34,962 nt of DNA from a virus (taxonomy: Duplodnaviria > Caudoviricetes): positions 1 to 34,962 of the IMG/VR virus record IMGVR_UViG_3300020151_001762; one strand, written 5' to 3'. A program made the position numbers and the translations under genes. Positions 445 to 16,100 of this stretch are shown here, one piece after another (position 1 is the first letter of the stretch; each line of letters starts with the position of its first letter). Below the pieces are notes generated by a model that saw nothing but the letters and a program-made list of their open reading frames with translations, did no database searches and was not told the origin of the DNA.

Positions 445-1464
445 ATGGTAGGCAAAAGAAAGAATCCGGCTGACCAGTGGCTTCCGCCGCGCGTCTACCG
501 AGGCAAGTCTCAATATGAGTATCGCCCGAAGTCAGGCGAAACCATAAAACTGTTGCCGCTAGTCAAAGGTGAGCCGGAAACTGAGGTTCTAAAGGCTAAG
601 GTTTGGGCTGAGTATGCAAAAGCTAAGAGCGCACCAGTTAGCGTGGACGACATAAACAAACTGATTGATGCTTATCACAAGGGCGCGCAATTCTGCCAGC
701 TTTCAGCCAATACGCAGGCCGACTACGGCCATTACTCAAAGCGGATTCGCAGGGTATTTGGGCACATGCTGCCGCAAGACGTTCAGCCGCCGCACATTCG
801 CCAGTTTATGGACGCCCTTGCCGCCCAAGGTAAAATTGTTACTGCCAATCGCCATCACAGTTATTTAAGTGTGCTCTTTGGCTGGGGCATTGAGCGCTCC
901 TGGTGCGACAAAAACCCGGCCAAGCAGGTTCGCAAATTTCGAGAGCAGGCGCGCGATAGGTATATAGAAGAGTGGGAATACGAGCTTGTCTTGCAGATAG
1001 CCAGAGCGAGCAGTTACCCATACTTGGCACCCATGATGGAGGTTGCTTACCTGTGCCGAGCAAGGTCCATAGAAGTGCGCGCCATGACTGAGGCTAACAT
1101 GACGCCAGACGGCATCTATTTAAAACGAACAAAGGGAAGTATTAGCGAAATTACCGGCTGGTCAGAAAGGTTGCGCAAGGCGATTGCTGAAGCGAGGTCA
1201 CTGTTCCCCGACTCGCCCACATCAATGGATCGCCCCCTATTCCACTCAAAAACCGGAATGGCTATACCCAAGGAGGCATTTAAAACTGCTTGGGGTCGAA
1301 TCATGACCAAGGCAATGCAGAGCGGACTGAAAGAGCGGTTCACCTTCCACGATATTAAAGCTCGCGGAATTAGTGACCATGACAACAAGGCGAGCGGGCA
1401 TCGCAGCAAGAAAATGCAGGCCGTTTATGATCGCAAGCCGGGCATTGTCCCGTCTACAAAATAG
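445..1464 (+). CDS. int: Phage tyrosine integrase
   Basis: 339 aa. N-terminal LPPRVY arm-binding motif; catalytic-type motifs LCRAR, KRTKG, FTFHDIKA, SGH and VYDRK; adjacent to a tRNA-derived att core. Confidence 0.95.
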   Translation: MVGKRKNPADQWLPPRVYRGKSQYEYRPKSGETIKLLPLVKGEPETEVLKAKVWAEYAKAKSAPVSVDDINKLIDAYHKGAQFCQLSANTQADYGHYSKRIRRVFGHMLPQDVQPPHIRQFMDALAAQGKIVTANRHHSYLSVLFGWGIERSWCDKNPAKQVRKFREQARDRYIEEWEYELVLQIARASSYPYLAPMMEVAYLCRARSIEVRAMTEANMTPDGIYLKRTKGSISEITGWSERLRKAIAEARSLFPDSPTSMDRPLFHSKTGMAIPKEAFKTAWGRIMTKAMQSGLKERFTFHDIKARGISDHDNKASGHRSKKMQAVYDRKPGIVPSTK

Positions 1465-2665: not shown

Positions 2666-5600
2666 TTAACGCGCTGGCTTTTCCATGTATTCGCGTTGCA
2701 ATTCCTGCAAACGCTTCTGGCGCTCAATCAGTTCCTTTTGTGTCTCCTGGTCAAACAAAATACCGGTGCGCATAATTGCTGTTTTCATCATGGTTTTAGA
2801 TGGGCGATACACAAACTCTCTATCTGCCGCTATCGCTCGCGCATCTTGTAATGACATTCCCGATAAGCGCAGCGCACCTACCGCTTCGCTTTGCGTCATG
2901 CCGGTTTTCATTGCCATTTTCACAGTGCGCCGCATATCGTTCCAAGCATCGCGGTGCATGCCCATGGATTTCTCATAGGCTGCGCGCAAATCCCCTTCAT
3001 CCACCTTGCCCATATCAGTGGCTTTTTCGCGCAGCACTACAGCGGCTTGGCGCTTTTTATCGGCATAGCCGTAGGCTTGATAGGTCAGGCCAACCTTGGC
3101 ATTTAGCGTGCCCTTGCGGAAGCCTATCAGTGCTAGCGCCTCGTCTTCGAGCGTGTATTTCTTTCCTGAATTGGTAACCGTTCCATTGGCGGCCTCTAAG
3201 AAACCAAGGCCGTTATTAACAAAGCCGGGCGCCAAGCCTTTAAACAATTTTTCATTCGCCTTCTCGCTGGTGATACTGTCATTAAAGAAGGCGTTGTAAA
3301 CGTACTCCCCCACCGTACCTGCAGCAATATCCAAACCAAGAAATGGCGATAGCGCCTCCCATGCGGCATCGCCCATGCGCGCACTCATATCACCATCACG
3401 CGCTAAAGCGGCAATCGGTTTTTTCCAGTAACCATAAGGGTCAAGCCAGCCCAAATCCATGTATTGCACCTGGCCTTTTTCGTCGCGACCAAGGAAAAAC
3501 AGTGAAGAACTTTTGCTCCATTCCGGCAGCATTTGGCGAATCGCTTCCTCTTCCTCGTCGCCCACATCGAACATTGAGGCAGAAAGCGCAGACAGGCCAG
3601 CCATCATGCCAGCGCCAAGCGCCAGACCAACACCCTTAGCCAGCACAGCAGGGTTTGCGTGGCCCAATGCTTTGGCGTCTTTATGGTAGTAGCGGAACTT
3701 GTGGTAAGTGGTGCGAATGATTTCAGCAGGGAACGATGGGAACGAACCAATCACAGGGAACCGGCGCAGCCATTGAATACCCTTGCCCGTTAATGAATAA
3801 GTTGGGTACGTATTGCGAATGCGCTCTGCCGCTTCTTTTTCGGCATCCGCTTCGCTCATTTTGTAGTGCTTCATCAGCATGGCTTTTTCGTTTTCAAAGC
3901 CAAGAATCTTCCAAAAATCATCGCCCAGTGCGTAAAACTCTTGCGCAAAATTAAGCGCCTTGCCTAGCTTAGATTTTCGGGTAGCCCGTGCCAGCCAATG
4001 CTCACTCTCGTTCACAGACTTAATCAAATCTTGCAGCTCGCGGTAATTAGGGGCATCGTAAAGAACGCCCAGCGTCAGCAGCTTTTTAATGTACTCGCGC
4101 GAACCTCTCACGTCTTTACCGGTGAAATAGGTATTAACAACCTTGACCGACTTTTCAAGGTGGACCGCATTCCAGTGCCCAGATGTGAGCGAGAACATTG
4201 AGGCAGACAAAAAGTTACGCACGGCCGTAGTAGGAGCCAACACAGTTTTGCCGTATTTCACCGCGCCATTTGCGGCCACCATCACCTTGTACCAGTCGGG
4301 CTCTGTATTAGCGCCCACCGCATCACGCAATGCCTGCTCAAATTCGGGGTAGGTGTACATGCCATTCAGCGGCGCATAAACCTCGCTGGCATCGGCTGCA
4401 ATTTTCTTGTTAGCACCCAGCGGGCGATTCTCTTCTTCAAAAATATACCCAAGCTGCAGCGATATATCGGTCATCTGGCGCAGGAACGCCGTGTTATGCA
4501 CCAGGCGGCTCATCTTGGTAACTGATTTCGCGTAATTGATCGCCGGGTCTTCGTACTCGCCCAGCAAGGCGCGAATCTCGGGCGCAATTTGCTTGCGCTT
4601 TTTAATCATGCTCAGGTCTTTTGAACCTAGCTTGCTCTCGGAAATAAACCGGCCAATAGAATCATAAGCCGTGCCTTCGTGAAGCATTAAATCCACTTTT
4701 TTGGTGGCCTCATCAATATGGTCGGCAGTTGGCTTTTCATCGCCAGCATATTGCTTGGCGAGGAAGTTAATCGCATTCTGGTAAACGTCCTCGGGCACTT
4801 TATTCGGCCATTCAGGGTCATCAAACGCGCGGTAAGACCGGTGCAAATAGCTGTCAAAGTTCTCGGTAATTGTCTCGATCAATGCGCGCTTAGCTGCTGC
4901 CGCCTCAAGCTTGCCGTCAGCCTCCAAATTAGCGGCATCCAATAGCAGCTCATTCATGTAAGACTTGGACAGGCTTTGAATCTGGGTGCGCATTCTGGCG
5001 AGCACTTCAATCATTGAATCGGTGAGCTTTACCGCGGTGCGGTCACCCTTCAAGTAGTCGTTAATTTCCTTTCGAGTAGCAAGCGTAAGCTCATGGTATG
5101 GCTTGTGGTAAATCGCAACAATTTGCTCGTAAAAATCTGTGAGAATGTAACGCTGCTGGCTGTCATCGGCACTCATCACGCCATCGCGGGCAATCTTTAA
5201 ATCAAAAATTTCACGCGGCAACAAACCGCGAGGCGCAAGCTGGCGCTTCACTTCGGTTTTGACTTTCTCATACAGGGTTTTATGCCCACCGCCGAGCTGG
5301 TTGTAAGCCTCTTTCAGTTGGTGGGGGAGCGTTGCGCCCCGTGGGGTTTTCGATCCGCCAAAAGAAAACCCGCCGAAGCGGGTTTTTTCTGAGGCATTTG
5401 AGTCTAGCGAGTAGAGTATCCCCCTTAAACTGGAAGATTCTGGTTGTCCTCGGCGCACTGCCTCCAGTAATTCGGATTTTTCGCTGCTCGTTCCGCGTAA
5501 AAAGGTATGTGTGAGCAACGCTCTCTGATTGCTTCTTCTACCCGTTGTATACGGGATTCCCTTTCTTCGTGCCACTCCTTCGACTGATCCGCGAGCCACT

Positions 5601-8600
5601 GCTTCGCCTCTGATACGGTTATTAATTTTATCGAAGTCTTTTGGAGCGATTTCATTGCCATCCTCATCCACAAAGGTGTCTTTGTTAATATCGTAGCGCA
5701 AACTTTCAAGCTCTGGCATCTGTTTTAAGACGTTTTTGTAACTAGCCATGATCATTGAGCGCAAATTGAAACTATCGGCACCTTCAATCCAGCTCACAGC
5801 ATCAACACCAGCAGCACCCTTAACTTGCCTTGCGTGCGGGCGAATGTGCTTGGTAGTGCCAAACTTTAGCGCCAGGCTGATCATGTTTTCAAGCCGACGA
5901 CTAACAGCTTCGTCAGACAGGCCGTTGGGGTCGCCAATAAATACCTTGCCTGCATTGTATGCGTAATTACCAGCGGCAGCGTAAAGAGCGCTCCCGCCTT
6001 CACTTGGCCCACCCAAGGCAACATTCAAATACACTTCGTCACCTTTCTCAATGACGAACATGCCAGTATCCTCACCGTTACGAATAATTGCCCACTGCTT
6101 GCGCCCCAATTTGTCGGCAAAGTCCTGGCGTTGCAGCGTTATACCTTGCTGCTTGCCCACCAACTCGAACACCTCTTTTATGTCGGTGCTGTCAGAAGTG
6201 GGGTATGAAAAAGCCTCATCGCTCTGCGCCATCAAACCCCAAAGCTCAAGCAGCCCCTTACCTTCGATCATCTTGCGCGCTTTTTCGGGCAATCCATCCA
6301 ACGAATACTTGAGCGGGTCGCGCTGCGCATTCAGCATCTTGCGATCCTGCTTGCTCAATCCAGCCAAGGCATAAATTAAGCCGGCAGTATCGCCCTGCTT
6401 GCCTTTGGTAACTGTCTCGCGCGCTTGTTTCAGAAGGTACACCAAGTCGCTCTCTGAAATAGCGGCCAGTTCCGCAAAGCCATTTTTACGCAACCAAGCG
6501 CGAATAGCCCCGATCAACTCTTTGGCATACTTGGCGACCGAAGGCTTGGTGTCTTCAGCCAAATGCGCAAGCAATTCTTCTGCAATCACCGCGTTTCGGT
6601 AGTCGGCGCGCTGGTCTTTGTACAATTCGTTGTAACTGCTTAGGTCTATGCCATGGCTTTTCGATAGCCGATCAATACCGCCCTGTCCGCCCATCGCAAG
6701 GTAAAGGCGTGATAGCGTACCGCTCAGCGCATCGCCAAACAGAGCCTGTAAGCCCATGTGGGTGTAAACCTCATGGAATATCAGCTGCTCAACATGCGTG
6801 GCATCTTCCAGCTTGCTTGCGTTCAGGTAGATATTGCCGGTCTTTGGGTGAAACATCGCCTGCACATCATCCAGCGACTTGCCGTCCTCACTTAACCGCT
6901 GGCGCACATCAGCAGGTAAATCACTCAGCGCCTCGACCAGCTTGACCTTAACGTCAACCGCCCAGCTTGAGGAAATGCGGTCTACTACGGCTTGGGCAGC
7001 ATCACGGGTGATGGAAGGGGAGCCTGCAGGCTTGGCTTTGTAGCGAATATCGGGATTAGATGGGTCGAATTCGCCGTTGTTGCCGGTGGCGGATTTGATT
7101 TGTTCCGACCTCCGAACCACATAAATTCTCTCAGGATCGTCACCTGTGGCATCGTAAGCAATTACGCCATCATGATTCCCTGCAGCCATCCAGCGGGCGA
7201 TGTCGCTATGCCTCACATCCAAAGCAGCTGCTGCACCTCCCCACTCCCCCGCATCGTCAAGAATTAACGGGTTATTTAATTTCAAATAAGCTGGAATTAT
7301 ATTTGGATTTCCAGCGGCATTCTTTGCGTATTCTGATGCGGTTGAACCAAACCCAAACCCTTTGTTAAGGTCAAATTCTGCAGCATTGGTAAAGTAAAAA
7401 CCAAGAGTAGATTGATCGAAATTTTTCCCTACTTTCTCAGAATCAAATACTGTGAAGTCTGATCCAGTGCCATGATAAACCACAAGCGGCTTTCCGTTTT
7501 CATCCACCACCTTGCTATCGCCAAACCAATTTTTAAAGGCAGCAGTATCGGTTTGATCGGAGGAAGGGGATTCTTTTGCGAGAGAGTACAGAACGCTATC
7601 GCCGCGCTCGTTTTCTTTTACGTTTATTTCGGCTATCAGCTTGTCGAATGCCTCACCAATAATCTGGCGTTCTTCACCGGCAGGATAGGCAAACGTATCG
7701 TCACCCTCGGCAAATTTCTCACCCTTGTCAGCGCGAACCAGATAATTGTTTTTGTTGCCATCATTAGCCAGTCTGTCCAGAACCCAGCTTTCAAAGGCGC
7801 GAGCAAACATTTCGTGTGGCGTAGTCCAGTAGGGCTTAGCGCCCTTCTCTCTTTTGCTTGAGCGCTTGTAAAAATCCGTATGGACCTTGCGAAGATTAAT
7901 GTCAGATTCTTTTTTGTTTACATAAAAAGAAACACCTTGCAAGTGAATGTAGTCTCGGTGCATTTCGGTAGGCGTCATGCCCATTGCATCAAAAACGGTT
8001 TTGATATTCGCAGGAATGGCGCCCGGTGATTTGCGCTTTCCCTTCGGAACAGGCAGCGCAACATAATCGCCAACATTGCCTTTTTCTATTTCAATCAGTG
8101 CATCCACCGCAGCTTGATTGCCCGCAATTTTTTCGCGCACCCCGCGCTGCTTAATGGAGAACTCCAAATTCTTTTTGGCTTGCTCAAGCCCGCGCCGATT
8201 GGCTGCGATAGCCTCCAGCATGGACTCCTGCTTTTTGCTCATCGCTTGGTATATGCCAGTGATTGCGGTCGCTACTTCTGGCCGCAACTGCCCATCGGCG
8301 CCGGTCATTTGTTGCGCTTCATAGTCCGCCAAATGCGAGGCAAAAGGATTGCTGGAGCGACCGCGCCCAGCCATTACACCAAAGTAATGGTCAAGTGCAT
8401 GCGCCCACTCATGCGCAACCGACCCAGCACCCATCGTCTTGGTGATGTTGATTTCGTTCACGCCGGGCACAAAGTGTGCGGCAAAATTACCGCCCCCGCC
8501 CTGCGCACCAAAAGCAATGCCAACCTCCCCACCCAAGCCAATTGCACTAGGCGGAATGTTCATCACCGCAGCCAAGTCGTGCAGCGCATCAAAGGCCGCG

Positions 8601-10162
8601 TTAATGTGTTGCTGGCGCTCTTTCTGGTTAACCCACTTGCCGAAATTAACACCACGGAAATTGAAAACACTCTTTAGGTCTTCCGGCGTTACATCGCGGT
8701 TATTTTCACGGCGCTCAGTGCCCGCACGCTCCCACCAGCTCTCATCTGCCGCAGAGGTATCGCTTTTACTGGTAGCGCTCTTGCGTGATGTTTGCGCCCT
8801 TGCCGCCTCGATTGCCTCCGCCTCGGTGTCGTGCGCGCTCAGCAATGAACGGGTTTTATTAAACAATGCATGCTTACCGGCCAATTGCTCTGCGCGGGCA
8901 TTGGCGGCCTTTTCTGCAGCCTCAACAGTGTCAAATTTACCAAGGCGCTCATAGGTTTTGCCGCGAGGACCAACAATATCCACATAGCCATAGACTGTAT
9001 CGTTAACTGTCTCGGCATAGCCCTTTGGCTCACCCTGCACAACAACGGTATAACCTTGGCGCTGCCACGCCTCTTGTGATGCAGGCCATCCGTCAGCAAT
9101 CGCCTTGACTGCTTTTACGGCAGAGCCAATATCAAAGCTCATGGCGTCAATCGCCTTGTTACCCAACATCATTGCGCGCTTATGATCAGGGGTTCCGCGC
9201 TGCCAGCGGCTTTTTGTTTCAGGGTTGACGGGGAATACCGCATCAAGCATTACTTTAAGCCCGCGAGTATCGCCAAGAGTGGCAATATCAATAGTGCTCA
9301 ATGACCGGCGAGAGGCTTGCGAACCAATTGCAGCAACAATGCCGCGCATCGCATCCATATCGCCAAGAAGGGATTCGGCAGCCTTTCGGGTTTCGTCAAC
9401 CGCACTTATGTATGCCTGCAGTGATTCATCATCGCTTTTTGGGGATTGATTCGGAATGGAATCATAAACTTTCTTAATCAAGTAGGCCGCGAGCTTAAAG
9501 CCATCCTGTTCTGCCTCGGGCACTCCATCAACAATTTGCTCCCAATTAGGCTTTGCCCAAACCTTGGCTTTGCTTGCGAGCTTCACTTTTAGCGTTTCGT
9601 TTTCGTCCTTAATATCATTCCATTTCAGGCCGCCCGCTTTAAACTTGCCTTTTTTGTTCCACGTCAAAGCGTCGCCAACGTCTTGAAGATCCGCTTTTTT
9701 CGGCGATGGCTCAGCCTTGGGCGCTGGAGCGTCATCTGCACCGATTCGGTCTTTAACGGGCAAGGCGGCCTCATCTGGAGCCTCAACATCATCACTCTTG
9801 ATTTCGATGGTATTGATTGGCTCGCTTTCTTTGATGGGCTCTTGAACTTTCTCGACCGAACCAACTGAACCCCTTGCTATTACTGGGCTTTCGCTCTTGA
9901 TTGGCTCTTTATTATCTTGAATGCCAGCCTTAATCTTATTAAACCGCGCAGGCATTTTGCGCTCAAACTCGGCCAGCACTTGCGCTTCAATACCGGCCTT
10001 AACCTCTTTTAATTCGTCCAGCTTATCAAGAATCGCTTGTTCTTCTGCCGCCTGCCGTTCCATGCCGCGCTCAACGTAGTCATTGGCTGCGGTAGACAAG
10101 TCTTCGCGGTCAACGGGCGCCATACGGGACGCATGCTTAATGCTGCAAAGTTTTAAGCTCAT
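2666..10162 (-). CDS. Giant polyvalent internal virion (ejection) protein, 2498 aa
   Basis: LPD1-like zincin domain (FRGVNFG.W, AHEWAHALD, YW..PHEMFARAFE). ART-PolyVal-like ADP-ribosyltransferase (FKNWFGDSKVVD..G.PLVVYHGT, GFYFT, PAYL...NP). Second peptidase-like motif HEVYTH..EE, a GNAT-like segment, and a helical/hydrophobic C-terminal region. Last gene of the virion operon. Confidence 0.88.
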   Translation of the reverse strand: MSLKLCSIKHASRMAPVDREDLSTAANDYVERGMERQAAEEQAILDKLDELKEVKAGIEAQVLAEFERKMPARFNKIKAGIQDNKEPIKSESPVIARGSVGSVEKVQEPIKESEPINTIEIKSDDVEAPDEAALPVKDRIGADDAPAPKAEPSPKKADLQDVGDALTWNKKGKFKAGGLKWNDIKDENETLKVKLASKAKVWAKPNWEQIVDGVPEAEQDGFKLAAYLIKKVYDSIPNQSPKSDDESLQAYISAVDETRKAAESLLGDMDAMRGIVAAIGSQASRRSLSTIDIATLGDTRGLKVMLDAVFPVNPETKSRWQRGTPDHKRAMMLGNKAIDAMSFDIGSAVKAVKAIADGWPASQEAWQRQGYTVVVQGEPKGYAETVNDTVYGYVDIVGPRGKTYERLGKFDTVEAAEKAANARAEQLAGKHALFNKTRSLLSAHDTEAEAIEAARAQTSRKSATSKSDTSAADESWWERAGTERRENNRDVTPEDLKSVFNFRGVNFGKWVNQKERQQHINAAFDALHDLAAVMNIPPSAIGLGGEVGIAFGAQGGGGNFAAHFVPGVNEINITKTMGAGSVAHEWAHALDHYFGVMAGRGRSSNPFASHLADYEAQQMTGADGQLRPEVATAITGIYQAMSKKQESMLEAIAANRRGLEQAKKNLEFSIKQRGVREKIAGNQAAVDALIEIEKGNVGDYVALPVPKGKRKSPGAIPANIKTVFDAMGMTPTEMHRDYIHLQGVSFYVNKKESDINLRKVHTDFYKRSSKREKGAKPYWTTPHEMFARAFESWVLDRLANDGNKNNYLVRADKGEKFAEGDDTFAYPAGEERQIIGEAFDKLIAEINVKENERGDSVLYSLAKESPSSDQTDTAAFKNWFGDSKVVDENGKPLVVYHGTGSDFTVFDSEKVGKNFDQSTLGFYFTNAAEFDLNKGFGFGSTASEYAKNAAGNPNIIPAYLKLNNPLILDDAGEWGGAAAALDVRHSDIARWMAAGNHDGVIAYDATGDDPERIYVVRRSEQIKSATGNNGEFDPSNPDIRYKAKPAGSPSITRDAAQAVVDRISSSWAVDVKVKLVEALSDLPADVRQRLSEDGKSLDDVQAMFHPKTGNIYLNASKLEDATHVEQLIFHEVYTHMGLQALFGDALSGTLSRLYLAMGGQGGIDRLSKSHGIDLSSYNELYKDQRADYRNAVIAEELLAHLAEDTKPSVAKYAKELIGAIRAWLRKNGFAELAAISESDLVYLLKQARETVTKGKQGDTAGLIYALAGLSKQDRKMLNAQRDPLKYSLDGLPEKARKMIEGKGLLELWGLMAQSDEAFSYPTSDSTDIKEVFELVGKQQGITLQRQDFADKLGRKQWAIIRNGEDTGMFVIEKGDEVYLNVALGGPSEGGSALYAAAGNYAYNAGKVFIGDPNGLSDEAVSRRLENMISLALKFGTTKHIRPHARQVKGAAGVDAVSWIEGADSFNLRSMIMASYKNVLKQMPELESLRYDINKDTFVDEDGNEIAPKDFDKINNRIRGEAVARGSVEGVARRKGIPYTTGRRSNQRALLTHTFLRGTSSEKSELLEAVRRGQPESSSLRGILYSLDSNASEKTRFGGFSFGGSKTPRGATLPHQLKEAYNQLGGGHKTLYEKVKTEVKRQLAPRGLLPREIFDLKIARDGVMSADDSQQRYILTDFYEQIVAIYHKPYHELTLATRKEINDYLKGDRTAVKLTDSMIEVLARMRTQIQSLSKSYMNELLLDAANLEADGKLEAAAAKRALIETITENFDSYLHRSYRAFDDPEWPNKVPEDVYQNAINFLAKQYAGDEKPTADHIDEATKKVDLMLHEGTAYDSIGRFISESKLGSKDLSMIKKRKQIAPEIRALLGEYEDPAINYAKSVTKMSRLVHNTAFLRQMTDISLQLGYIFEEENRPLGANKKIAADASEVYAPLNGMYTYPEFEQALRDAVGANTEPDWYKVMVAANGAVKYGKTVLAPTTAVRNFLSASMFSLTSGHWNAVHLEKSVKVVNTYFTGKDVRGSREYIKKLLTLGVLYDAPNYRELQDLIKSVNESEHWLARATRKSKLGKALNFAQEFYALGDDFWKILGFENEKAMLMKHYKMSEADAEKEAAERIRNTYPTYSLTGKGIQWLRRFPVIGSFPSFPAEIIRTTYHKFRYYHKDAKALGHANPAVLAKGVGLALGAGMMAGLSALSASMFDVGDEEEEAIRQMLPEWSKSSSLFFLGRDEKGQVQYMDLGWLDPYGYWKKPIAALARDGDMSARMGDAAWEALSPFLGLDIAAGTVGEYVYNAFFNDSITSEKANEKLFKGLAPGFVNNGLGFLEAANGTVTNSGKKYTLEDEALALIGFRKGTLNAKVGLTYQAYGYADKKRQAAVVLREKATDMGKVDEGDLRAAYEKSMGMHRDAWNDMRRTVKMAMKTGMTQSEAVGALRLSGMSLQDARAIAADREFVYRPSKTMMKTAIMRTGILFDQETQKELIERQKRLQELQREYMEKPAR
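5360..5390 (-). terminator. Intrinsic terminator embedded in the giant ORF
   Basis: Minus strand reads AGAAAAAACCCGC-TTCG-GCGGGTTTTCTTTT: GC stem, cUUCGg loop, U tract. It is also U-rich on the + strand, so possibly bidirectional. Confidence 0.75.
5425..5655 (-). CDS. Putative nested +1-frame gene (76 aa) inside the polyvalent protein gene
   Basis: GAGGA SD 5 nt before ATG 5655. Protein-like composition (12 D/E in 76 aa). The main frame becomes R/G/S-rich over it, and a terminator follows 35 nt downstream. Confidence 0.6.
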   Translation of the reverse strand: MKSLQKTSIKLITVSEAKQWLADQSKEWHEERESRIQRVEEAIRERCSHIPFYAERAAKNPNYWRQCAEDNQNLPV

Positions 10163-13100: not shown

Positions 13101-16100
13101 TTGCCACCCTTCACGCAAGCCAGCATGGACTCAAAAGTGCTTATGTCATCGTTGACCGATTTAAGCGCATCGCGCGCAGGCACCTTTTCAGTTTCGTACT
13201 GCCCGGTGTCTTCGTTGTAAACCTGATAATCCACCATGAGTGATTTCAGTATTTTGGGGGGAACGCTTTTAAGCAGCTCAGCATTAACGTCAGCCTCGGT
13301 CATTGCTGGTGCTGCAGGCTCAACTTTCTCGGGCTCGCTTTTCTGCGGCTCAGAAACAGCAACCCCAGCGCTTGGCTGGGGTTGTTTTTCGGCCTGAAGC
13401 TCTTTACCTTCGGCGTAAATAGCCGCGAACTCTCGATGAAGTGATGGGGATAGCCGACGAACACTGTCTGCGGCATTTGCATCTATCTCACTAAAATATG
13501 CCGCCGATCCAGTATCTCGATCCATTACTTCCGTAACAGACCGAAGCGCGCCATCTTCATCCGTATAGGTCGTGAATCGCCAAGCAAAAACTTCATCAAG
13601 ATTCTTGAAAAATGGCCTGTCATTCTTTGGGATTTTTACGCTTGTGGTGATTATCCTTGAGGATACAACCTGGGCACCGTCAGGTATCGGTGCCTTGTTC
13701 ATAACCTGTTGTTCAACGTCGCGGCCAAATATTTTTAACTTAAGCGATTCCCCTTTGCTTGCTGGTTGCTTGACGGCCTCTTGATTGCGCAGCGCATCGG
13801 ATTGTTCAAAGCCAGCAATGGCGCGGCTTTCGCTCTTGATCGGCTCTTGATTGCTTGCGCTTATTTCATCGCTAACCGTAGTTGCGGGTTTTTCAGCTGG
13901 CAGAGCACCGGAATCACTGGGGGTTTTTATTTCATCACTAACCGCAGGCTTAGTCGCACGCTTCGCGCGTATCGCCTCGGCCAGTTCACCTAAGCGCATG
14001 GCTTTATAGCCGGGAACGCCAAGGGTTTTGGCGATGGGGCGGGCTTTGATTAGTGACTTATCCCAGCCTTCGGGTAGGTCTACTGGTTGTCGTAGTCCGG
14101 CGTCTCGCCCCGCGCTATCGCTTCTAGGTTCCGCTGATGCCCTGCTCTCAATTCCGCCCGGCGCGCCTCCTGCTTCTGCTGCTTGGCGTTGACGTGGAAC
14201 AGAAAGCCCCGCTTCAACCGCTCCAGGTTCACCGGCTGATCTTTGAACGGGTACTTGAACTCCTTCATCATCTCGTCGGTTACTTCTATATCCGGGTACA
14301 CTATCTCTCTTGCCATTTTGCTCAGGCTCGCTAATTGCGGGTTTGTTGGCCGATACCCATGCAGTCATTGCATAAGTGAGCTTGCCCAGGCTATCGGGGT
14401 AACGCTTTGCGTATTGCTCATGCGCTGCAATTACCTTATCAGGATCAATGCCGTACTGCACCATCGCGTCAGTCATCAATTCATTAAGCGCGGCATCTTC
14501 GGTAGTCGCATCCGCTTCATGCTCGTCACGGTTGCGCCATTGGTCTAGCTCGCGGTTTCCCTTGTTGGCAAGCATGGTGCGGGCGCGCTTTTCCCACTTT
14601 TCACCTATGGCTGCATCGTCGCGCTTAAAGCGATTGGTTGAATCAAGCACCTCTTGCACGATGACTGCTTGGCGAGCGCCCAGCTTTTCGCCGTTAAGCG
14701 CCTTGGTTACTGCCTGCTTAATTTCAGCAGGTGTGCCGAATTCGGCCAGCTCTTTAATGTAATCGGGCGCGGCTTGCGCAGACTGCAACTTGAGCTCATC
14801 TTCCGAAGAGTAGCGCTTGTTTCCGGCCAGTTCACCCAATACCGCCTCAATGGCAGCGCCGGAAACAGGAGCGCCGCTTTCGTCGGTGAACCCGCTAAAA
14901 CCATTCTGCGCGGCAAACTCCGCCAAGTCGTCTGGCGTCATGCCACCGTCAGCACGAAACGCTTTTGCGAATGCCGAGCCGTTTTTGGCTTTCAGATCAG
15001 CAGGATCAACACCTTCGCTCACCCACGCATCGGCATTCAAGCCGCCACTTTTGGCGGCCATTTCCAACAGGCTATCGGCTTTTTCAAACGCGCCCGCATT
15101 GGACTCAACACCCGCAGCCACATCGCTCAGGTGCTCGCGGTAACGGGAGCGCAGAAGGCGAACGTCCTTTAAATTTTCCGGCATGCGCGAGTTGCGTGCC
15201 TTATCGATATTGGCAGAAATCGCCTTTTCCACACCGCTGGCAAGCTGTTCGGTTCTTGCCGGCTGTGTGACAAAATCAATCCCGCCTTGCGGCTGATCAA
15301 GGGGCGCAAGGGTTAGCGGCTCCGGCTTTGGCACCGGCACGCGCTCAAAATTGACGCCACCTTCGTAGGCAATCGGTTTTTGAATAAAGCCGTTTTCTTC
15401 GCCAAACTTGCGCGCCACATCGGCAAGCGTAGTTTCTTGGTCTTCAGCTTGAGGCGATGCGGAAGGAATGGAAATAGCCGCTTCTTGAGCTTTGCGCGCA
15501 TCAATGCGACGACGAAGATTTGAGACAAAAGAATCGGTGTCCAACTCAAACTTGAATCGGTCATTCGGATTTTCAGGATTGCCTGCATCGCGCAGCAAGG
15601 GGCGTTCAACCTCGACGGGTCCAACGCTGCGCATGTTGTCTGGCGTGTCATCAGTAATGCCGCCGCCGACCTCAACACCGCCAAGGTTGCGCAACTGTTC
15701 GCCGTTTTGTGGTAAATCAATACCGTCTTGGTCAATGGTATCAGGACCGGCATTGCGCACATTGCGCCACGAATCAACAGCGCCTCGCCCTGCACCAAGC
15801 GAGCCACCAATACCGCCACCAATCAGCGCGCCCTCAAGCCCTTGCATTGCTGCCTCTTGCAGAGACATAGCCTTGTCGGTTCCGTAACGTTGCCCAACGT
15901 ACTCAAGCACGCCCGTCTGAATGGATTCCGTCAGCGCTTCTACAGTCGCCCCTCTCGCAGCCTCTTTGCCAATTTTCCCCATGGCGTACTTTGTTGCACT
16001 ATTGGCAATAGATCGCGCCTCGGCTTGCGTCATTGTCTCGCCGGGACGAAAGATCATTTTTGGCAACAGTCGTTCAAGCACTCCAGACGCAGTGCCGACC

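Follow-up and report, generated by a model that had tools for sequence, protein, structure and literature searches.

What is a second, out-of-frame gene doing inside the coding sequence of a domain that is itself buried in a giant phage protein? The question is raised by the 34,962-nucleotide IMG/VR record IMGVR_UViG_3300020151_001762 (the window, by which the whole analysed stretch is meant), a 35-kb temperate phage contig with an integrase, an SU10-type portal and adaptor, capsid, terminase, lysozyme and holin. One open reading frame (ORF) on its minus strand encodes 2498 amino acids (aa) and includes a domain of the Pfam family LPD37. Over the tail of this domain, on the same strand and one base out of frame (+1), lies an ORF of 76 codons. 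As judged by comparison of homologues, this is a real, conserved overprinted gene with purifying selection on the second frame. Its product is proposed to be the antidote of LPD37 as an effector domain, a reading given a probability of roughly 0.5. The features that the argument needs first are the following.

2666..10162, minus strand: host gene, predicted polyvalent virion (ejection-type) protein of 2498 aa (domain matches, PHROG 22602)
5405..6313, minus strand: LPD37 module, 303 aa from LKYSL to ILYSL, predicted single folded domain (Pfam PF18853, AlphaFold2)
5425..5655, minus strand: nested +1 gene of 76 aa, its product predicted as three helices (open frame in homologues, selection on both frames)

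A first scan of viral contigs with the single window protein returned no relative. Searching viral and metagenome contigs with a 30-row alignment gave 160 loci (the best 80 of 110 plus the best 80 of 100), which together with four annotated records and the window make 165 loci, or 126 representatives at <80% identity, two of them not covering the overlap. Over module aa 225-285 the +1 frame is free of stops in 123 of the 124 non-redundant loci, against 18/121, 14/126 and 17/125 for +1 control windows of equal length. Stops per 100 +1 codons amount to 0-0.13 at module aa 206-280 and to 1.7-6.0 elsewhere. When codons are shuffled synonymously with the own codon usage of each locus, the frame stays open in 38.3 ± 3.9 of the 124 loci, with a maximum of 48 in 100 rounds. 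A second set of 62 loci from bacterial genomes, which is not de-duplicated and partly shares its records with the first, has the frame open in 60/61 (controls 4/61 and 6/62), and 54 of the 62 score at least 15 bits with a nested-protein profile built from the first set. The position of the nested stop is also recurrent, falling at module position 293 in 63/124 loci and at 296 in 19/124. An earlier reading made from the window alone, here called the sequence-only reading, had staked the gene on homologues that keep the frame free of stops together with an ATG and a Shine-Dalgarno (SD) sequence; the open frame and the enrichment of ATG plus SD described below leave that claim standing.

The second frame also leaves its mark on the codons of the first. 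The host residue R264 is encoded by AGA or CGA in 109/124 loci, compared with 19/126 at R139 and 7/126 at R140, and module position 270, which is Thr, Ser or Ala in the host frame, is xCC in 112/124, encoding an inner Pro. Synonymous divergence was measured at identical host residues in 43 disjoint pairs; it is 0.39-0.41 in the core and falls to 0.16-0.18 in the overlap, a reduction that the sequence-only reading had proposed to look for. In the same pairs +1 identity rises in the overlap from 0.44-0.54 to 0.66-0.73, and host identity stays at 0.60-0.76. Because synonymous divergence falls and +1 identity rises with host identity unchanged, both frames are under selection.

In the window, the nested ORF runs from the ATG at 5655 to the TAA at 5425, as first described, and further in-frame starts are available at 5667 and 5661 (ATG) and at 5709 (TTG). 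Its 12 aspartate and glutamate residues in 76, against 3 in 169 for the +1 ORF at 15313-15822, were counted correctly. Among the 27 +1 stretches of at least 50 codons in seven large ORFs, the acidic fraction is at most 0.055 in 25 and 0.12-0.15 in two. The host frame had been described as rich in Arg, Gly and Ser over the nested ORF; it is so only modestly (0.29), and other stretches, which span 0.07-0.35, reach higher values. The 76-aa protein is predicted as three helices with a predicted local distance difference test (pLDDT) score of 85. Single-sequence searches with it gave no match, no fold match exceeded Z 4.9, and it has no match among the PHROGs.

The 118 nested proteins collected have a median length of 78 aa and share the motif RLKE..SS.P(F/W)YA..A..P.YW, in which the inner P51 and the inner W64 are each present in 111/118. 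The window protein shares 18/38 residues of the motif region with that of Erwinia phage Pavtok. Against Pfam, 94 nested proteins gave single chance-level matches alone and no known antitoxin family, and a profile search returned nine short proteins without genomic context. Acidity as the mark of an antidote was rejected, the family being neutral. Eight loci of a Massilia/Janthinobacterium-like clade (L004, L034, L037, L048, L050, L059, L063, L126) carry an insertion of 50-60 codons in both frames at module aa 215, which is conserved in the inner frame (HPF.HL...Y.LTNPL.EN.L) and brings the nested protein to ~105-140 aa. Two distant LPD37 loci of Verrucomicrobia (L225, L226) have a +1 ORF of a different type, common to both (PKEIL.LS.RDWTPETAELVR.HFLGPL), which is possibly a diverged or replaced partner.

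A second candidate nested +1 gene is found at 14080-14316 on the minus strand (78 aa from its ATG), in a linker of a 1219-aa ORF. The linker is rich in Arg, Gly, Ser, Pro and Gln, the acidic fraction of the candidate is 0.149, and the host arginine codons are AGA or CGA in 8/11 cases, as over the LPD37 nested gene. No clear SD precedes its first ATG, and it has no match in annotated phages or PHROGs.

The signals expected of a separately expressed gene lie around the nested ORF.

5661..5665, minus strand: Shine-Dalgarno sequence GAGGA, 5 nucleotides (nt) before the ATG at 5655 (sequence; ATG plus SD enriched in the family)
5690..5719, minus strand: weak predicted promoter of sigma-70-like type within the host coding sequence, ATGCCA-18-TACGAT, 34 nt upstream of the nested ATG (boxes at 5719/5695)
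5360..5390, minus strand: predicted intrinsic terminator, a UUCG hairpin with U-tract and an A-tract before it (sequence, shuffles, relatives)

As far as family-wide enrichment can tell, the nested gene has its own start, SD and promoter-like signals above chance. An ATG with a 4-nt SD occurs at module aa 203-224 in 57/125 loci, against 22.3 ± 3.8 in the shuffle null, with four control windows at or near the null. Most nested starts fall at aa 204 or 207, where the GGAG is supplied by host P-E codons; in the window and its near relatives the start lies at aa 218-224. Scored with simple weights, sigma-70-like sites of 14 or more are found at module aa 170-210 in 75/125 loci against a null of 34 ± 4, and four control windows remain at null level. 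The Tyr-Asn codon pair at aa 207 forms a TACAAT or TATAAT -10 box in L005, L086 and L167. The weak ATGCCA-18-TACGAT of the sequence-only reading is present within this enriched zone, and it is placed in the right spot because near relatives carry TACAAT where the window has TACGAT; a stock promoter scanner did not include it among its five sites. Another promoter-like site, TTGAAA-18-TAAAGT at 5892-5863, scores higher, but was set aside as its region has no family-wide enrichment.

The terminator claim held in part. The hairpin CCCGC-UUCG-GCGGG with its U-tract does lie 35 nt past the nested stop (z -2.2, 5/200 shuffles as good), in a stretch that the host frame translates as SEKTRFGGFSF, and it is kept in near relatives; in five near sequences both arms of the stem vary and the U-tract is retained. 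A stock terminator scanner did not list it at 5390-5360, and it sits just 3' of ILYSL, hence outside the YSL-bounded module in which it had been placed. Terminators near the nested stop are found in 19/119 loci, against 2-6 of 113-118 in controls; within 90 nt of the stop the counts are 14/103 for fused copies, 4/16 for free-standing ones and 5/817 for control windows. With ~15% of homologues carrying one, the terminator was rejected as a universal part of the module.

What, then, is the domain that the gene overlaps? The module matches PF18853 with E 8.5e-59 and 199 bits (gathering cut-off 27), and LPD37 is present in at least 859 protein clusters. AlphaFold2 predicts, with confidence, an alpha/beta fold of which the overlapped C-terminal helices are part (mean pLDDT 87, predicted template-modelling score 0.86). 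Two parts of it stand out.

5825..6034, minus strand: conserved enzyme-like core, module aa 94-163, weakly GNAT-like (column conservation in 181 proteins)
5453..5539, minus strand: host-frame C-terminal helices of LPD37, module aa 259-287, overlying the core of the nested gene (conservation, AlphaFold2)

The conserved residues of the core are G104xxG107, Y111, A118, N120, FIGDPxGLS, R139-R140, M144, T154, P159-H160 and Q163. Over the 181 proteins, G107, Y111 and R139 are invariant and D128, R140, T154, Q163 and W175 nearly so; it is because of these residues that LPD37 is suggested to be an enzyme. In the C-terminal helices, G258, T261, R264 and L283 are conserved in the host frame. The nested ORF, said to follow the effector segment, is indeed downstream of the core, but overlaps the last conserved part of the domain. 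Part of the conservation in the Pfam LPD37 model is itself explained by columns that the other frame sets. Two proteins (P0049, P0050) carry two LPD37 copies each, ~560 residues apart.

The stretch EGGSALYAAAGNYAYNAGKVFIGDPNGLSDEA, in which a GNAT-like acetyl-CoA loop had been seen, is present together with the 2498-aa ORF, LKYSL at 6313-6299 and ILYSL at 5419-5405. GNATs carry the motif R/QxxGxG/A, unlike the loop of LPD37, which reads GxGG. The nearest known folds are that of DUF1122/AQ1966 and those of RimL/RimJ-type GNATs, and many GNATs appear among the weak rows of the fold searches; the best fold match is DUF1122/AQ1966 (PDB 2arh; Z 5.3, root-mean-square deviation 4.4 over 134 residues), which is also the feature look-alike at 0.88, both scores below significance. 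All leads from the feature look-alike searches stayed under 0.9, and a Pfam scan, which misses remote relatives, gave no GNAT hit at E 0.01. The resemblance to GNATs is a weak one, a lead rather than a result, and LPD37 is predicted to be an acyltransferase-like effector.

The association of domain and nested gene extends beyond giant proteins. Free-standing LPD37 genes, of ~290 codons, make up 17/126 representatives, most within ~270-320 codons and two truncated at the front; a quick tree scatters them at several places among the fused copies, and two further ones come from genomes of Serratia and Brenneria. The nested ORF is present in all 17 representatives.

5405..5419, minus strand: downstream boundary ILYSL; free-standing homologues end directly after the equivalent FY (comparison of copies)
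6299..6313, minus strand: upstream linker motif LKYSL, retained by near relatives but not throughout the family (comparison of copies)

Fourteen free-standing copies end in FY-stop, the FY matching the LY of ILYSL in the window. The downstream boundary is a swap point, since in 5/9 near proteins the similarity to the window breaks off at aa 1585-1603. LKYSL is not, since upstream similarity reaches aa 1055 or further in 9/9, and as a family-wide boundary it was rejected; in distant relatives a methylase-helicase precedes LPD37. The proposal that domain and nested gene are swapped as one cassette therefore survives through the free-standing copies and the ILYSL swap point, but not through LKYSL as the usual other end. 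Because the free-standing copies share the FY end and the nested ORF, the pair is a mobile two-gene module, and by comparison of these copies domain and nested gene move together, whether fused in frame or free-standing. The overlap with a conserved, predicted-folded part of LPD37 and the retention in free-standing genes tie the small protein to LPD37 itself.

Some free-standing copies have defence genes nearby: the one at L175:4920-5795 has OLD-TOPRIM and UvrD (Gabija-like), TIR and PIN, that at L179:4824-5795 HsdM and a DUF927/Toprim pair, that at L112:1887-2834 ThsB and that at L161:36-743 Mrr. Free-standing LPD37 with its nested ORF is a candidate for an unrecognised defence or toxin-antitoxin unit. 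At L203:21-4590, a short LPD37 ORF adjoins an apparent CRISPR array, judged from repeated translated motifs.

An antidote role would accommodate these observations as follows. The internal promoter would make the 76-aa protein while the late operon is silent in the prophage, and before late genes are switched on; the terminator would keep the nested transcript out of the remaining giant gene, and would itself be bypassed by late antitermination. The small protein would bind or otherwise block LPD37. Cells producing virions would thereby be protected, as would lysogens into which a related phage injects the domain, whereas a naive cell would receive LPD37 unaccompanied by the antidote. As for the free-standing copies, they would act in defence or resemble toxin-antitoxin units. 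With the antidote written inside the coding sequence of the effector, the pair could not be separated when domains shuffle. The integrase of the window was counted in favour of this reading. At one locus (L193), a broken nested ORF accompanies Y111H and a frameshifted host tail, a single case that fits an antidote. The broader proposal, a self-immunising effector cassette able to join any giant virion protein by in-frame fusion or to serve on its own in defence, is put forward more tentatively, at somewhat under even odds.

Several results weigh against the antidote. Strict linkage is also expected of a cofactor, and overlap by itself forces co-inheritance. L054, the other of the two loci with a broken nested ORF, has an intact-looking LPD37 core without it, and no copy of the ORF was found elsewhere on its contig, which is 54% complete; its N-terminal positions D32 and P38 are changed, and a search for relatives of this ORF-less locus returned itself alone. 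The nested family is not acidic (12% Asp plus Glu, 13% Lys plus Arg), and no PADLOC model matches LPD37 or the nested protein. As for the effector, Foldseek with the LPD37 model gave no match at E 0.001, the Z of 5.3 to AQ1966 is within the range of unrelated rows, and neither a sequence match in the PDB nor a profile match to one real GNAT was obtained, both with methods that miss remote relatives. Other free-standing copies lie beside ordinary genes, and the defence neighbours come without a background rate. Finally, ~85% of homologues have no strong terminator. Predicting a complex of the 76-aa protein and LPD37 (aa 19-303) gave a score of 0.00 (mark 0.32), which was weighed neither way, and a two-by-two cross-tabulation of core changes and inner-protein changes was discarded as uninformative, several of its 'bad' rows being cut-off extracts or W-to-F changes.

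The linkage and selection data would also fit if LPD37 and the nested protein were obligate partners, with the latter activating or chaperoning the domain or serving as its second subunit; produced by the resident element, it would license or fold the domain, for instance in a two-component defence or in superinfection sensing. Free-standing units beside defence genes also suit such a role. An injected domain, however, would enter a cell not yet making the partner, the internal promoter and own terminator would better suit a pre-loaded blocker, and L054 does without the nested ORF. A partner of this kind is considered unlikely, though likelier than the other rivals.

It is somewhat less likely that the nested gene, though real, serves a purpose that has nothing to do with LPD37, as moron-like cargo or as an exclusion or anti-defence factor lodged in a tolerant stretch. 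The second candidate nested gene, which this phage carries in a floppy linker of its 1219-aa ORF, would be in keeping with such lodgers. Against this, the nested gene is never apart from LPD37 in the collected loci (the search for unlinked copies being weak), free-standing LPD37 genes that lie outside virion operons retain it, and the distant Verrucomicrobia copies have a +1 ORF, possibly a diverged form of it.

The +1 frame might instead encode a different C-terminus, which ribosomes would enter by frameshifting near module aa 205 to yield a shortened virion protein. In favour are the constant position (aa 205-206) from which the frame is open and the ATG with SD found there in only 57/125 loci. 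Starts, SD and promoter-like sites are above the null just upstream, however, and the start position shifts among aa 204, 207 and 218-224, all of which makes frameshifting improbable. A shadow frame held open by host amino-acid make-up, with no protein, is strongly disfavoured: host sequence alone keeps the frame open in ~31% of loci (38/124 in the null), against the 123/124 seen with rare Arg and Leu codons forced, synonymous divergence halved, and inner residues and stop position conserved. A search among sequencing runs listed no RNA data set containing the sequence.

The host gene places the antidote reading in its biological setting. The 2498-aa ORF carries LPD1 (aa 772-847), ART-PolyVal (887-1032) and LPD37 (1307-1525), and its C-terminal part matches PHROG 22602, a virion structural protein. 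Because of these three domains it is taken as a polyvalent virion protein in the sense of the passages of Iyer et al. 2017 (PMC5512222); several conflict domains share one giant ORF, with portal, capsid, adaptor and terminase genes nearby. By analogy, the protein would be packaged in the virion and injected: phi24B gp47, with LPD5, LPD1 and LPD38, has been detected in virions and its ejection proposed, according to passages describing it. Short motifs recur at domain ends of the ORF (LYSL, IRYK, LKYSL and ILYSL at aa 858, 1039, 1285 and 1583), possible marks of self-processing or recombination. An HNH homing-endonuclease-like gene directly follows the integrase and faces the end of the late operon (1516-2217 and 445-1464, plus strand).

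In the annotated records of Erwinia phages Pavtok, Stean and PEp14 and of a Massilia plasmid, the giant coding sequence is the only one over the nested gene, which current annotation overlooks. The nested gene would give LPD37, an uncharacterised polyvalent-protein domain, a partner, and its nesting would explain how an effector internal to a giant protein still keeps an immunity gene. The overlap further offers a natural example, spread over several bacterial phyla, of one DNA segment in which two proteins are both under selection. If the antidote reading is true, lysogens would be protected against effectors injected by kin phages; if it is also general, nested genes of polyvalent proteins would form a hidden layer of domain-specific immunity.

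Embedded genes, toxin-immunity pairs and polyvalent proteins are each already known. The passages of Iyer et al. 2017 (PMC5512222) describe phage polyvalent proteins and solo forms of several LPDs, and the window has the same arrangement, with LPD1, ART-PolyVal and LPD37 in one giant gene and genes for portal, capsid and lysis next to it. The main text contains no occurrence of LPD37, overlap or linker, and its passages name no nested or immunity gene. A literature search, with the supplements of that paper and most subscription papers outside its scope, found no description of a nested gene in LPD37. The pair can be set beside two further kinds of system.

In polymorphic toxin-immunity pairs and type II toxin-antitoxin systems, including those with GNAT toxins, a small linked partner lies downstream. 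The LPD37 pair is alike in that a small partner is strictly linked to an effector-like domain (123/124, 60/61 and 17/17 loci, with L054 and L193 as exceptions). The classic polymorphic toxin has a C-terminal toxin domain and a separate downstream immunity gene, an arrangement that LPD37 does not follow: ~900 residues come after it, and its partner overlaps the domain. Internal promoters are known from some toxin-antitoxin operons, such as axe-txe, in passages of PMC4803016. The LPD37 nested gene likewise has a predicted promoter of its own, and a predicted terminator, inside a 7.5-kb gene, which sets it apart from Rz1 within Rz and E within D. These genes, of lambda and phiX174 respectively, are small same-strand genes wholly embedded in a shifted frame, and Rz and Rz1 are functional partners. 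Unlike them, the LPD37 pair moves between virion proteins and chromosomes as a cassette the size of a domain.

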